From Neodothiora populina (lineage: Eukaryota), in contig NW_027191417.1 in NCBI RefSeq assembly GCF_041146345.1, positions 682,001 to 746,000 of the forward strand: DNA of 64,000 bases, given 5' to 3'. Under the pieces are notes generated by a model, which was not told the origin of the DNA, did not search any database, and saw only the letters and a list, made by a program, of their open reading frames with translations. How positions within the stretch are numbered: the first letter of the stretch is position 1; each line of letters starts with the position of its first letter. This document shows positions 3,372-11,021 of this stretch, piece by piece. A program made the translations under genes and the position numbers.

Positions 3372-5729
3372 AGGGTTTACATCGGCATATAGTACAAAAC
3401 ACTCTTATAATATCGGAGAACCGTGTCGGAAGGATACTTCGGCAATCTACTGCATCCCATTATCTGAACTGTGCTGTGTACACGGCAAGTTGTACGATCG
3501 AGGCGAAGGAGCTTGTCACGTTACTTGGACTTTTCTGACATGATAGTATTGAGCATCCGGGTTTCTTGCGAATTAGCATCGTGACTGACGGTTGAAGACG
3601 TTGTTGCACATGCATCTCATGGAAGATGGGCCTCTCCTGTCTTGAGCCTACCACTTGGGAGACGCATACAGGGGTAATCGGTAGGAGAACGTCCAGCCAC
3701 AGGTGCGAAATCACATGATTTCGTGTCAAGCGCGTGCATGATGGTTTGCATAAAAGCTACAGACCGCACAGCCCATGCACAAAGATAGTCGAGCTAGACG
3801 AGCCGCCAGTGGCTTTATGCTTGCTCGTAGCATGTGGCAGATGGTAACTTTGACCTAAGGTACCTTATTTTTACAGAATAAGGAATGCTTCGACGTGTCG
3901 CGGGGGATTCCCTCTCTCGCATGAAGAACCCTGCACTGACCATATTCATGCACACTAAGACGAAAGGGCTGCATGACAGGAGTCTTTAGTACGGACTTTC
4001 CTCGGCCACGACAAGCAAGCCAATACAGTAGCACCCCATTGCAAGCATTATACCGATGGTCTAGAAGAAGTCATTTTCTCACTACAAATCAAGTAACATC
4101 AATGCGATAATCCTTGGGAGTCTGGCTCTGCGGACATCACGACACTCATGACGTAGACCATACACTATGATTGGATTCCCAGTGGTGTGAGTGTCGGTTG
4201 TCAAGAGCAACAAACGTAGACAAACGGTACCATTGAGTGGCTACAGTGTATCTACAATCTACATTCTATCTCGTATCGATGGAGGGAGTTATCTTACTTC
4301 GAGATTGCGACTCGCTACCAATTGTGAGGACGCCAATCTTTAAGAATGGCGATAGCATTTGAGAAACCCTATGCGCCGCCTTGGTCTAGCGTCGGTCCGC
4401 CCGTCCCCGGTCGAGCTTCCGAGCTTCATACGATGGAACTTCCGGCTGTGTGGGCAGTCAAGAGCTTCTGTATCTTTCAAAAGTATCACGAGTGCAAGTA
4501 CGTACATGGACCTTATGCAACTTTGGCGCAGTGTACATACGCGTGCAAAGAACGTACCGCGATTTTTGCCTCTGATGCAATAGGGCGAACGCCGATCCAG
4601 TACTACCTATTTGTACATGAGAATTGTCCGATAGGACCGGTCGAAGTTGCCAGGCTCACGGCGAAACGCATATCCAATCGGTTTCTTATTGAGTGTGTAC
4701 AGTACTTGTAGAGATTCAGGCGGGCCGGAGTATTCGCCTGGATCGCGCAAAGGACAGCAAGGCACAAAAGCAGAGTAGCAGAGTATCTACGTATTCTACC
4801 TTAGTTTTGTTATACTGGTGGGATGAAGCCAAATGTGCGGAGGGAGTATTGTAAATTGCCGAGCATTCTACCATCCGTCGGCTCGCATTGCGCTTGCATA
4901 TGCCATAGCATTCGGAAGGGCAGTAGCCAAACCCGATCGACATGCTAGCTGTCAATCATGGTCCATATCGATATCCTGGGATACCGGAGCAAGTGACCTG
5001 CTCGTCTGACGTCTTCGATCAACTTGATTTCTATTTCAAAAGTTGAAGCCCATTTTGCAATTTCGATCAGGTCATCGAAGATGCAAAGATAGCATCATAC
5101 AGCGATCTTACACAACAAAAGCCTCGGGGATTAAAATTTGCAATTCGAGAGAAACGTTTGATGGCTACTTGATTGGTCGAATGGCTAAGGGCGTAGACGT
5201 GAGGATGCGAGCAAGGAGACAACGGCTTTTGCCCCCCCTTGGTCAAGGATTCGAGGGGCCACAGTCCAGGGAGACGGGTCTTTTTGCCCTCGAAGTCGTG
5301 CAGGATTTGGACCGTGTAAATTGTAGCGTAGCCTGCGGTCCGCACCGGTGCCAGGCTTCCGAGCAACAACAACAGAAGATATAGCGCCACTTGCTACCCC
5401 CAACGGGCTAGGGGCTTTGTGGGGACTCGATCGCCAATCCAATCCCTTGGAAATCCACCTGCAGAGCATCCTGCATGCCAGTCCGTCCTAGCGGCAAACG
5501 GCAGCGTTGCTGCTGTTGCAGGACCATCGTCGTTCCAGGGCGAAACCGAATTGGCATACATAGGTAGTTATCCTTCCGTCCAGTTGCCAGATGTTGCTTC
5601 AGTTCCACTTTCATACCCGTCATTCATTTCCCCATTACTCTGTTTGGAAAGGCATGAGTCCAGAGCGAATCTTACAAGCACTCGTATGATTATATAGGAG
5701 CAAATTCGCAATCTACAGGCCGACCTGAA

Positions 5730-6626
5730 ATGGCGTCTCCAGCACACTATCCTCGATCGACTCCGGTCACTTCGACATACTTTGATTATCAGCCTGCTTC
5801 GTGCAACGTATCACCCATGAGGCCGCGGAAAACAGACGTTTCCCGTCTGGATGCATTCCATCAGAGACCAGAATCACCTTTCGAGTACCCTCCCAATGCG
5901 AGCCTCTATGCAAAGCGCGCATTGCCTCCTCTGCCGCCTATGGCTGCAAGGAGACCACTAAGCAGCCGTCCATCCACAGACTCTATGCGTTCTGGTAGAC
6001 CGAGCATCAGCACAGTGGATAGACAGTCATACGACAAATGTCTTCCTCCGCTACCACCTTCTCTCCATGAGTGCCCATCGCTCGAGTCAATGACCTCGAA
6101 TGGAAGACAGTCACGCCAACGCAATGGTCGCGGCATGAGCTTCCGCAACCTCATAAACCGTCACTCTGCCACTTCAATGGATGATATCCCTTCCTTGACT
6201 TCATCCATGAGCAGCCGCAACTCTCGCACCGATTCCGTTGTCGGTGACAGTACCATCGGCTCAGACACTGCTAGCACATGCCACATGCCCAGCAACAGAC
6301 GACCTTCATTGTCTCTCACGCATCTGCGCACAGCATCAAGAAAAGTCAATGCTGCTCCGCCACCACTCCCCACTCGACCAGTAACTGGTCGCAAGCACAG
6401 TGCCAGCGTCTCCAGTGCGCACAGGTGGAACCCCTTCCGCAACTCAGATGCAGATAAGGAAGACATTCCTCCCATGCCAGCAACTCCTCCATACATCCAG
6501 GAGCTGAGCTTCGGCAAGTGCTACTACTTCTTTGCTCGCAACTGCAATGGATATGTCCTCTCCAACGGTGCTAGTGGTGATGCTTGCGAGAACTGCGCGA
6601 ATGCTGGTTACCTCGGCTCGCCATGA
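5730..6626 (+). CDS. Hypothetical Pro/Ser/Arg-rich protein (298 aa) with C-terminal Cys4 motif
   Basis: Intronless ATG-TGA ORF; low-complexity body with LPPLP motifs; ends in CYYFFARNCNGYVLSNGASGDACENC. Confidence 0.75.
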   Translation: MASPAHYPRSTPVTSTYFDYQPASCNVSPMRPRKTDVSRLDAFHQRPESPFEYPPNASLYAKRALPPLPPMAARRPLSSRPSTDSMRSGRPSISTVDRQSYDKCLPPLPPSLHECPSLESMTSNGRQSRQRNGRGMSFRNLINRHSATSMDDIPSLTSSMSSRNSRTDSVVGDSTIGSDTASTCHMPSNRRPSLSLTHLRTASRKVNAAPPPLPTRPVTGRKHSASVSSAHRWNPFRNSDADKEDIPPMPATPPYIQELSFGKCYYFFARNCNGYVLSNGASGDACENCANAGYLGSP

Positions 6627-7236
6627 ACAATGACAGAAACTTCGCTACTATGAGAGCGAAGTCTGTGAATGAACCATCAACTTAGGAAAACCAACTGGTC
6701 TTCTGCAAAAGGTCCATAGGGACCAACCAAACGCCAATCATACTATTCAATAGTATGATGCCGGCCGAGCATAGTCTCGAGGGCAGGCCGCGATCGATGA
6801 CCCTTGACCAGTCGGCAAGGCGAAGAAGAAGCAACACGTACTGGCCTATCCAGACGGTGCTTTAGATTGCGTGCAAAGCGTACAAGCCATTGGGATATGG
6901 AACGCGACACGATACTCCATCGAAGACACGAATTTCCTACATTTCTCATGCAATATCCTGTATGGGATAAATATTTATGACTGGGATATTGTTCATTATT
7001 TACAATCGTGAACCTTGGAACTTGCTATGAACTTACGAACCACATTTTTACTCTACGTATCAAGACAAATACAATACTGTCTACCACAATCCATTGTCTC
7101 TGTAACCATCTTGACGCTTGCTTGACTTGACCTCTGACCTCGTGTGTGCATTCCTCTATGGATTTGTTTACATCAAACAACAACATTATCAAACGGTTTA
7201 CAAAACAATCACAATGAAATGAACATCAACAACAAA

Positions 7237-7516
7237 CGAGAAACGAGCCAGACCCCTCGCTCATCTCGAAACGCGCAACAGTTCTCCCTTGAGAACAACG
7301 TCTTTCTCTTTGCTTCGCAACGGTATAGTTGCGAGAACGTTGTTGCAATAACTGCCTAAACGTCGTCGTGAAAAAGTCCCCACACAGCACGAAAGCAACA
7401 ACACACCTGAAAGCCCCATAGCCCAACTTTGGGTGAGCTTCCTAATTCGGAGAAGGACGGGCTGTTGGCCTCTTGCACAAGACGAAAGGAGAGTTTCACC
7501 CCTCTTGTGCTTCTCC
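7237..7516 (-). ncRNA. Candidate structured non-coding RNA or structured UTR of unknown family
   Basis: Five back-to-back helices found by eye, several extended by G-U pairs on the minus strand only; U-rich tail downstream; no convincing CDS (see findings). Confidence 0.4.
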
Positions 7517-7600
7517 TTTTTAAGGTTTCGAGTCGCCTGTTTATGCATGGAACCCTGTCTTCTCCGGGTCTGTCGAACAACTTCGGTCGTCCTCGAAGCT

Positions 7601-7621
7601 CTGCTGCTGCTGCTGCTGCTG
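7601..7621. repeat. (CTG)7 microsatellite
   Basis: Direct reading. Confidence 0.9.
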
Positions 7622-9778
7622 CAGGGTACGGGGACTGCGCCTACTTGCCTACCTACTTGCAGTGCCGTATCTTGGGGAGCGGAGTACATTGACATGTGCA
7701 TTCGAAATGTATAGTACAGTAGTAATGCACACAGTACTTGCAGAGTGTGCACCGTGACATCCCCCCCCCCTTTCGCACATGGCTACCCTGCTGGATCTTT
7801 TCTTCTGCGATCTTGTATCTGACAGTGGCCGGGTTATATCCTTGTGAATCCAAAACGCCACTGTCGACATCCATCTATCTCGGCGAATTGACTGCTACTT
7901 TTGTATCTTTGACATGTGGGGGTTGAGTGGGTATGCTGTGACGACGGTCATAAGGTGGAATCAGATATTCATAATTTCATGGCAGAGTGCATCTTGCTGT
8001 GCATGCAGTTCACGCGCGCTCCTTCCCAGGAGGAAACAGTAGGTTCAACCAGTTGATCGCGAAACAGCGATAAAATGCCCGAGGCACAACATCCCAAAGC
8101 TAAGGTAGATTATACGAAGACGTTGAAAGAAGAGGCCGTTCAGAGAGAGGGGTCAGGAAGGGAGAAGCAGGGTGACCACTCAACATAGCCAACCAAAAGC
8201 AGGGCAAACATCAAGGGTACAAGAAGCATGAGCGACAGCAGCATTCTGGCGAGCTCGACCGTGACAAGAAAGTTAGGCATGGAATAAGGTGCTCATCCGT
8301 CCCCATCTCACTCCATCCCACAATGAAGTTGAGATCGGTGATCGACGAATACCCTACCTAGGCCCACCCCACCTCGCTCTGGACTGCCCGTCTGGCTCGG
8401 GTAATTAGCGCTTCCGGCTCGCGTGTGCACCTACTTTTCTTTGCGCCTTTACACCCCCTGGCCCTCCCAGAGTAACCTTAAGATACAGCTCCATGAGCCA
8501 CGGGCCGCCGAGGTTGGTTAGCGATGAAGTCTTTCTCCGGCTCGGTTCATGGACCTTTTCCGTCTCTGGTGTTCTGATCCGGGAGATCGCACCTCTACGC
8601 GAGTGAAGTGACTTTGGTCTATGCGGCTCCACTTCCGCCTCGAAGGTTTCAAAAGGGGAACAGGAAAGGCTTGTACTTTCTGCAGACTGGGTGTCGATCA
8701 TTGCGTGTTTAGCGTGTTAATACTACACCTCACTCGCTTACTTGGGAAAGGAAAGAAGGATGGTTGGATGAATGCGGTTCGACATCACGACCGAGATGGC
8801 GGACAAGGTTGTCGGTCATGTACAGTGGTAGTAGTCTTGTATCCTCATTTGTCTCTTCGTTGCTCTTGTCCGTATGCAAACCCGATATGCTGGGAGGAAA
8901 TCCCCCCAGTACAGATACTGTACTCTTCGTGGCTTATGGCCGACAGCCAAGCCGTGTAAAGCCGTCACTCTGATTCTTGTTCGGTCTACTGCACATTGCG
9001 GCAAAAGTACTTGTGCTATTACATGTAGTGTGTACTCCTGACGAGATTCTCCGACACGCCCATTCACCACCTTATGCTAAGATACTGGAATACACTTTGC
9101 CGGCCCTGTCGACTGCGGACAAGCGCCAAGATAAAGGTCCACACGTGTTTCTTCAGTATTTGACCATGCTTGGGTTCATGTTACCAAACTCAAGCGAGGA
9201 CCATGAGGAGTAAACCGCGAAGAGGTATTCTGCTTTCCCCGCAAGCTCGAGCGTCGGCCGCTCTTACTCCATCATACGCCTTGACTTGCCTGTGCGCATC
9301 TTATAGCCAGAGCGCCTTCAAGAACGGTCTTCAAAATGGATAATGAAGAGACCCGCCACACTCAAAGTCATTGAGACCGGGCGATCTCTCATCGGTAGAG
9401 GCTCCGATAGCCATAGCAGAAAAGATGATTTCCTGCAAGAACTTTATCGAGGCAGGTGGTAATTCAGCCACTGCCGTACTAGCGGGTGTCGCTCAACGAA
9501 GCGTTGTTCAGCCATGGTTGCACTCAACACTCGCACGACCGCAAGAACGCGACACAGGCAAGCGCCACTGTTGAGGTGCAATGAATCGACCGATTGAACA
9601 CACAATGGCTTCACATACTCTTCTTGAAAGTTAAGGAGTTGATTTTTGACCGTGTAAGAGCATTCGCGAATGCGCGTTTGGTCGCACGACTCCGCAGCAA
9701 GCCGGCCATAGCGCAGGGTGGTACGACTGCATTGATGTATGTCGTCGCAGACGGACCTCGATGGCCAGAGCAGATCGA

Positions 9779-10543
9779 TTACCACCATCGCACGCCAAAC
9801 ATCTTTCCTTGATTCCTCTTGTCAAGCTTGCCCTTTTCGGCATTCTCAAGCCATATGCGCTCGTGACCGGGAACATCGAGAGCGAGAAGATGGTACTGGA
9901 AGTCGCTCTCATCCTTCCGACGAGTCATATGGACATTGACAACACCAGAAGCGAGGGGTCCAGAGACGTAAAAATGCATATGCATGTGGGTAGTTCCAAT
10001 GCGATCGGTTTCGGTGCGAGAGCTGTGGAAGAGAGATCAATACACATGCGCTTTCATCGTTGTGGCAGCAATCACTTACGCAATAGTTCTGTTCCTCGCC
10101 CAACGACTCCAGCTGGGTTCCCCATGTGCCTCGATTTCAGAAGAGTGTGCTTTGCCAGCTAGGATCTCGATACAGCGCGGATCATCACGGATCCTGTTGG
10201 CGCATCTGTTGAAGACAGCGGTTTTGCTCTCGGTGCTGAAGACTTCGGTATAGAGGACATATGAGACACCGGCGGTCATGGCAATAGCGACAAGCAACAC
10301 GCCAAAGTTGACTGATTGCTGCGTCGTTCGTGCTGCCTTTTCTTTGATCGACAAGTCTCGCCACGGCACTCTTCCAGTATCCGACATGACCGTCACTGCC
10401 CGTCGCGGCGGGGCAGCTTTTGAGGAAGAGGAGCCATGTGGGAGTGAAGATGATGTCGCCCTGCGGCATTGGTCTCTGATTCTGCCACTCAAACGGACTG
10501 CGTGCCTGACCTGGAGGCGTGGAGCTACGTAGACAAGCGACAT
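9779..10543 (-). CDS. TIM21: Mitochondrial import inner membrane translocase subunit Tim21; exons 10543-10080, 10022-9779
   Basis: Arg-rich presequence, WRDLSIKEKAARTTQQSVNFG, single TM helix, AHGEPSWSRWARNR, HMHMHFYVSGP, C-terminal KMFGVRWW; GTAAGT..CAG intron 10079-10023. Confidence 0.92.
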
Positions 10544-11021
10544 GATGACCCGGCGTCGGAGGGGTAATAATTTTACAGTGATGGCGTTTCTGATATACGC
10601 TGGTTGGTAGATAGTACAGGTGACTAAATTCCCTGCAGTCTGGTGCTCTTGTTTCGTGTGATATGGAGCAGGATATGATCTTATAGCATCGAGCTGGTGG
10701 TATTTCTTACCTTGATCTATCCTAGAGACACACGAGCAGAATGAACGTCTACCGGAAGGCTTATTCAGACATGCATCTGAGCTTTTGCGGCGAGGGCGAG
10801 AGCTGTTTTCCCGCTATGCGTCCCTCGGCAGTGCAGTTAGCGCCAAGCTCTACGACGTGCTACTGTTCGGAGGTGGAATATCTAATATCCGCAATCAACA
10901 ACTACAGTACTTTATCTTATTGTACTCACATCATGATTTGATGTTATTCTTGTTGCTTCGTAGTTGAATCCTAGCAGAAAAGTAACTGGGGAACTACTTG
11001 GGGCGGTCTTAGTGCCTGAGA

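Follow-up and report, generated by a model that had tools for sequence, protein, structure and literature searches.

The 280 nt at positions 7237-7516 of the window, the 64,000-nt stretch of Neodothiora populina DNA that was analysed, on balance probably belong to the distal 3' UTR or transcription-termination zone of the protein gene P1, in the gap that separates P1 from the convergent gene TIM21, and the hairpins that can be drawn there would be mostly incidental. A sequence-only reading had proposed five adjacent helices of a single minus-strand RNA in this place; as proposed, the five-helix RNA is not a supported feature. The assignment to P1 is suggested by two short motifs at one edge of the stretch, whose distances from the P1 stop codon are kept among related loci, and by the plus strand, which folds better than the minus strand both here and directly after the stop codon.

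The content of the window is fungal and of Dothideales type. The stretch lies inside a gap of 3.15 kb, 610-890 nt beyond the P1 stop codon (position 6626), which serves as the anchor for all measurements of conserved distance. The gap is bounded by two genes:

P1 gene, 5730-6626, plus strand: its 298-aa product has no Pfam family, is conserved among Dothideales-type fungi, and carries a four-cysteine motif at its C terminus.
TIM21 gene, 9779-10813, minus strand: convergent with P1 and closing the gap; its stop is approximate and was placed where the similarity to the syntenic loci ends.

Besides itself, P1 has 19 relatives with identities of 49-66%; those that carry a name come from Dothideomycetes sp. 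NU459 and Aureobasidium, and one cluster includes Delphinella. In the P1 search, 37 cluster representatives had E ≤ 0.001; for many of them the alignment covers the C-terminal part only. The protein is largely disordered, and its strongly conserved C-terminal four-cysteine motif is possibly an unnamed metal-binding domain; an atlas search assigned no family (best value 0.85, a lead only).

The syntenic loci number 11, all from metagenome contigs, and the prokaryote and viral collections contained no related locus. Because L002, L003, and L004 are near-identical, as are L005, L006, and L011, the sample represents about four lineages: the P1 of L002-L004 is 100% identical to that of A. pullulans, L005, L006, and L011 belong to a different Aureobasidium, and L001/L008 and L009 represent further lineages. 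The gene order transcription factor, P1, gap, and TIM21 is retained in L003, and the order P1, gap, and TIM21 in L005 and L011; in L003 and L011 the gap itself is shorter, about 2.4 kb compared with 3.15 kb in the window. Three loci (L001, L007, and L010) stop short of the region and were excluded from the motif counts, which leaves eight. Only three distant lineages reach 7237-7516, and they provide no alignable set for H1-H5.

The proposed helices do exist as complementary sequences. All eight pairs of arms (H1, H1b, H2, H3, H4, H4b, H4c, and H5) are complementary at the positions assigned to them if G-U pairs are allowed, H5 requiring a 2-nt bulge. Their predicted behaviour differs from helix to helix:

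H1/H1b, 7449-7516, minus strand: in the fold of the 280 nt, H1b has a pair probability of 0.87 (0.31 with flanks) and H1 of 0.01; with local folding, both form.
H2, 7411-7440, minus strand: local hairpin with a pair probability of 0.85, which holds a look-alike of the telomerase P6.1 element (loop 7426-7422, three of four stem pairs).
H3, 7360-7404, minus strand: rich in G-U pairs, with a pair probability of about 0 (0.00) in the proposed register.
H4/H4b, 7277-7356, minus strand: complementary, with pair probabilities of about 0 (0.00 each); the competitor is a small unlisted hairpin near 7279-7294.
H4c, 7315-7334, both strands: strand-symmetric 7-bp hairpin with a pair probability of 0.98 on either strand.
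H5, 7237-7268, both strands: local hairpin with a pair probability of 0.59 on the minus strand and 0.75 for its mirror on the plus strand.

When the base-pair span is limited to at most 150 nt, the centroid includes H1, H1b, H2, H4c, and H5, and the helices H3, H4, and H4b are replaced by other pairings, in which the 5' arms of H3 and H4b pair with each other. By their pair probabilities, H1b, H2, H4c, and H5 are plausible as thermodynamically real, local hairpins. Constraining the stretch to the proposed helices yields -82.3 kcal/mol compared with a minimum of -98.5 kcal/mol, a penalty of 16 kcal/mol. One minus-strand RNA formed by five adjacent helices is thus not supported, given the unpopulated H3, H4, and H4b, the energetic cost of the combined fold, and the lack of conservation of H1-H3. 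Of the surrounding sequence elements pointed out in the sequence-only reading, four are present: CATAAA (7545), (CAG)7 (7621-7601), a G run (about 7769-7759), and a U-rich tract (about 7235-7165). The TACAGTA motif also exists (7716-7722) but reads on the plus strand.

Comparison with shuffled sequences gives a mixed result. The minus strand of 7237-7516 is only marginally more stable than expected (z -1.91, with 10 of 200 shuffles as good), and the plus strand performs better (z -2.52, 2 of 200). Five of the 91 minus-strand windows of 280 nt across the 64 kb reach z ≤ -1.9, and 7237-7516, which is one of them, ranks second. The minus strand can form 29 stems of at least 7 bp, and only three of the 91 control windows hold as many. 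In composition-matched shuffles the mean is 25.6 such stems, and 20 of 60 attain 29. Both the abundance of helices and the argument that G-U pairs favour the minus strand are unremarkable, because the strand skew (G+U on the minus and A+C on the plus strand) yields them, and it is the opposite strand that folds better relative to shuffles. A skew of this kind would allow many helices with G-U pairs to be drawn, and as described the helices are of little significance, since they are to be expected in a G+U-skewed intergenic strand.

The most structured part of the region is 7230-7360 on the plus strand, with a z of -3.31 (1 of 200) and of -3.35 against local shuffles, compared with -2.11 on the minus strand. 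The part that comprises H2 and H3 (7360-7445) folds like shuffles (z +0.36 on the minus and -0.14 on the plus strand). The observation of helices is partly confirmed, and they go beyond chance only in part. In a scan with 20 shuffles per window, whose grid was set to begin at 7230, the plus strand of 7230-7360 ranks first among 491 windows; together with a structured counterpart in L008, this leaves room for selected structure and counts against the reading as a 3' end of P1 with mostly incidental hairpins.

The description of the stretch as gene-free and without a known RNA family is supported. The covariance models of Rfam 15 gave no hits in the 64 kb, and the matches in two narrowed searches (best E values 0.13 in 5500-9500 and 3.8 in 7180-7560) were at chance level, far below the gathering threshold, and from unrelated taxa; Rfam searches over the syntenic loci also returned nothing, and ARAGORN found no tRNA. 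A motif search for the ordered hallmarks of snRNA, RNase P/MRP, SRP, snR30, C/D-box, and hammerhead RNAs matched none, which agrees with the reported absence of U1/U2/U5, SRP, RNase P/MRP, and hammerhead signatures. Within 6900-7900, the same kind of motif search revealed no box C, no match to snR30 m1/m2, and no Sm site or snRNA hallmark. Minus-strand matches to ANANNA within 7237-7516 (7508, 7309, and 7266) do not lie at a hinge between two helices and hence form no H/ACA arrangement.

An ATG-started minus-strand frame of 146 aa (7701-7261) spans nearly the whole of 7237-7516, and the helices might be noise from the coding sequence of an orphan protein gene. This origin is highly improbable: the frame has no homologue (none of 110 candidates at E ≤ 1) and no entry in the protein collection that contains the product of the neighbouring P1, the syntenic gaps hold neither a counterpart of it nor any conserved reading frame, and no Pfam family was found in either of the two minus-strand frames that lie over the element, out of 21 frames scanned. 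The stretch is accordingly regarded as non-coding.

Conservation in the region is confined to the edge at 7187-7361; in or next to it, three features recur among the syntenic loci:

M1 motif, 7270-7281, minus-strand reading CTGTTRYRCRWT: present in seven of the eight loci that are long enough, with a single occurrence in the 64-kb window.
M2 motif, 7190-7199, minus-strand reading AARCCGTTTG: present in six of the eight loci that are long enough.
U/UG-rich tract, 7165-7236, minus strand (A/C-rich on the plus strand): about equally far from the P1 stop codon in L008, L003, and L011, absent in L009.

Across three lineages, M1 lies 599-681 nt and M2 544-573 nt beyond the P1 stop codon. It is thus the motifs, defined only after the alignments had been seen, and not the helices that keep their place next to P1. 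The distance to TIM21 shifts by about 700 nt while that to the P1 stop codon is kept, which indicates that M1 and M2 track P1 and not TIM21. The U-rich tract accompanies the motifs in four of the five sequences profiled.

Collinear 7-mers shared with 7187-7361 exceed local shuffles in L008 (0 of 400 shuffles as good), L003 (2 of 400), and L005 (16 of 400), and do not in L011 (193 of 400) and L009 (151 of 400). For the part that carries H1-H3 (7362-7516), the corresponding counts are 102 of 400 in L008, 400 of 400 in L003, 84 of 400 in L005, 281 of 400 in L011, and 10 of 400 in L009, so that H1-H3 appear to be without conservation in four of the five syntenic loci tested; the fifth, L009, lacks M1 and M2. 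A scan in 300-nt steps, which covered 55 window-locus pairs and compared each with 802 control pieces, has its maximum at 7077-7377 for L008 (2 of 802) and for L003 (0 of 802), and shows no such peak for L011 (505 of 802) and L009 (394 of 802). The word test is a blunt tool, because the visibly conserved proximal UTR of P1 went undetected. The missing word signal in L011 and L009 counts against the assignment to P1, as does the outcome of the homology searches: BLASTN of 7237-7516 against the related loci, a comparison called for in the sequence-only reading, gave no significant match (E at least 0.68), nor did nhmmer (E at least 0.18). The BLASTN matches of H1b and H4c to L002 and L004 (E = 0.68) were taken as chance; their offset differs from that of M1 and M2. 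No covariation was shown for H1-H5.

From the observed synteny, motif positions, and folding statistics, we infer transcription of the stretch, its strand, and the binding of proteins. Selection appears to keep M1 and M2 around a low-complexity tract at the 7187-7290 edge, and the two motifs may be single-stranded protein-binding sites or signals for 3'-end formation on the P1 message; the hairpins nearby would at most keep them exposed. Fungal Pol II transcripts have U- or GU-rich zones of 3'-end formation and termination, and the region resembles such zones in its U/UG-rich tract, its fixed position between convergent genes, and the adjoining short motifs. A 3' UTR of at least 700 nt would be long for a compact fungal genome, which counts against the assignment to P1. 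The sequence coverage consists of contigs of DNA-type runs, four of the seven listed, none of which extends over 7193-7546.

The same tract and motifs would also fit an unannotated minus-strand ncRNA of Dothideales that fills the gap and terminates at the U-rich tract, with the stretch as its 3' domain, composed of a long H4-like stem and conserved single-stranded motifs. The U-rich tract follows the motifs on the minus strand in the window, L008, L003, and L011, and several islands over about 2 kb of the gap are conserved between the two Aureobasidium lineages. The counterpart in L008 is structured (z -2.54, 0 of 200; boundaries set by eye) and forms a nested stem with arms resembling H4 and H4b, including one pair that by eye appears compensatory. 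A covariance model of H4, searched against 71.7 kb, has its top match at this syntenic place in L008, on the minus strand, and finds no second copy in the 64-kb window (best other match E = 0.82). However, the L008 match is not significant (E = 0.14) and skips the inner helices. The Aureobasidium segments are no more stable than shuffles (z 0.17 and 0.19), the consensus fold obtained from aligning them is weak on both strands, and a sequence model of the Aureobasidium block produced no hits in the window. The absence of a box C, Sm site, or snRNA hallmark from 6900-7900 also speaks against an ncRNA of this kind, which is rather unlikely.

Several short conserved sequences occur in the Aureobasidium gaps. 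On the minus strand, a block conserved at L003:11370-11525 and L011:760-935 measures about 150 nt, contains four invariant words, and is predicted to have little structure; one of its words, M0, is also present in L008 and missing from the window. More short islands conserved between the two Aureobasidium lineages lie at L003:11700-13000 and L011:1050-2400, over about 2 kb of the gap, and a degenerate telomere-like stretch among them is restricted to A. pullulans.

The conserved words may also be DNA sites for transcription factors, in which case all hairpins would be incidental. This would agree with AAC[A/G]G words that occur repeatedly, a near-palindrome at M2, and a putatively forkhead-like GTAAACA near 7170, and likewise with the strand symmetry of H4c and M2, the recurrence of similar words several times per lineage, and the restriction of conservation to words of 10-12 nt without covariation. 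A gap between the 3' ends of two genes is, however, not where a promoter is expected, the gaps hold no conserved reading frame, and binding sites of this type are decidedly unlikely.

The sequence-only reading had also noted a loop reminiscent of telomerase P6.1. The telomerase RNA of Pezizomycotina has a template longer than one telomeric repeat and a P6.1 element with a 4-bp stem and a NUNGN loop, located beside P6 and closed by P5 (Qi et al., PMC3592445; Kuprys et al., PMC3603654), and its 3' end is marked by an Sm-like site, an AUA(A/C)GU 5' splice site, and a GCU(A/G)AC branch point (PMC3603654, PMC4299874). TTAGGG-type patterns were used to locate telomeres in A. pullulans (PMC8329847), in two micro-colonial isolates of Dothideomycetes, and in Elsinoe (PMC11195213, PMC13535502); among the matches listed, no relevant paper dealt with variant telomere words.

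With these features in mind, the stretch could be the three-way junction (P5/P6/P6.1) of a minus-strand telomerase RNA of about 2 kb whose variant template would be 8718-8703. The region resembles such junctions (PMC3592445, PMC3603654) in its ORF-poor gap of 2-3 kb, which is compatible with the size of the RNA, in a NUNGN-type loop (7426-7422), and in a downstream AUACGU (7060). A G-poor repeat with a 9-nt period lies about 1290 nt upstream, a loop-to-repeat spacing similar to that given for N. crassa in PMC3592445, and the candidate template lies between the arms of a 15-bp inverted repeat. Unlike the RNAs described there, the candidate has a P6.1 stem with only three of four pairs, in a sequence that folds as H2 instead, and neither its gap nor the syntenic gaps contain a TTAGGG template. 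As the sequence-only reading had stated, no such template is visible nearby: a run of at least 8 nt of permuted CCCTAA is absent from the gap and from all 11 loci, including the complete gap of A. pullulans. The look-alikes are moreover at chance frequency, since the minus strand of the window holds 350 look-alikes of P6.1 and 103 template-like repeats, of which 8718-8703 is one. In 6900-7900, no branch point follows AUACGU and no canonical Sm site is present, the candidate template is partly paired, and no Rfam model matches. A telomerase RNA, the least probable of all the origins considered, was dropped because it fails on the template, P6.1, and the branch point. Inspection by eye for a triple-helix pseudoknot yielded nothing convincing.

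At 8596-8740, a 15-bp inverted repeat (87% complementary) surrounds the G-poor repeat with the 9-nt period (8703-8718), which is template-like but of chance frequency.

A better candidate for a structured UTR than 7237-7516 is located closer to the stop codon of P1:

Proximal P1 3' region, 6627-6870, plus strand: a run of hairpins and a conserved 15-nt motif at 6776-6790, outside 7237-7516.

The plus strand of 6627-6760 folds far better than shuffles (z -5.15, 0 of 200; -3.44 on the minus strand), and the plus strand of 6730-6870 has a z of -3.59. The 15-nt motif is present in 10 of 11 loci and occurs once in the window; the element was noted directly after the P1 stop codon in L001-L008, L010, and L011. 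The first hairpin after the P1 stop codon is predicted in the window and in seven of the eight loci that were folded, with 87.5% of cells paired and three of six pairs changed on both sides, measures that are not significant in a shuffle control (37-65 of 500). The proximal region has no Rfam match. For 7237-7516 itself, a structured UTR, the alternative named in the sequence-only reading, is possible.

A fungal screen (Gao, Jones and Rivas, PMC8216456) describes conserved structures in the 3' UTRs of thioredoxin, RING-finger, and thioesterase genes of Pezizomycotina, and requires at least three significantly covarying pairs, two of them in one stem. Among the matches listed, this was the only paper on structured RNAs in the literature on Dothideomycetes or Aureobasidium. 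The stretch resembles these structures in being a non-coding element on the 3' side of the same protein gene across genomes; going by their descriptions, it differs from them in that no covariation was shown for it and in that P1 is not among the genes listed there. The query genomes of the screen came from other groups only, so that an element of Dothideales could have been missed.

P1 may thus have a long structured 3' UTR with two modules (6627-6870 and 7187-7361) that is conserved in Dothideales and absent from Rfam, or its distal module may be the 3' domain of an undescribed 2-kb ncRNA in antisense orientation that fills the gap between P1 and TIM21; this pair of possibilities is unlikely. 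Either one, if true, would give black yeasts a new regulatory RNA specific to their lineage, and if 7187-7361 and the proximal element belong to one regulated UTR or ncRNA, a lineage-specific RNA element would be added for Dothideales (Aureobasidium and relatives).

Further observations concern the remainder of the gap. The segment 7633-7832 is covered in the runs X4, X6, and X7 and lies between PstI-type and MspI-type sites, as read from the sequence; because these sites bound the piece, the coverage looks like a restriction-library fragment and not like an RNA signal. Three of the four runs compared have a G/C homopolymer at 7759-7769 that is shorter by 1-2 bases. A perfect inverted repeat of 9-10 bp at 7814-7867 lies upstream of the G run, and 7760-7879 folds with a z of about -2 to -2.5 on both strands. 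On the TIM21 side of the gap, the 120-nt window 9080-9199 on the plus strand reaches a z of -4.1 (25 shuffles).
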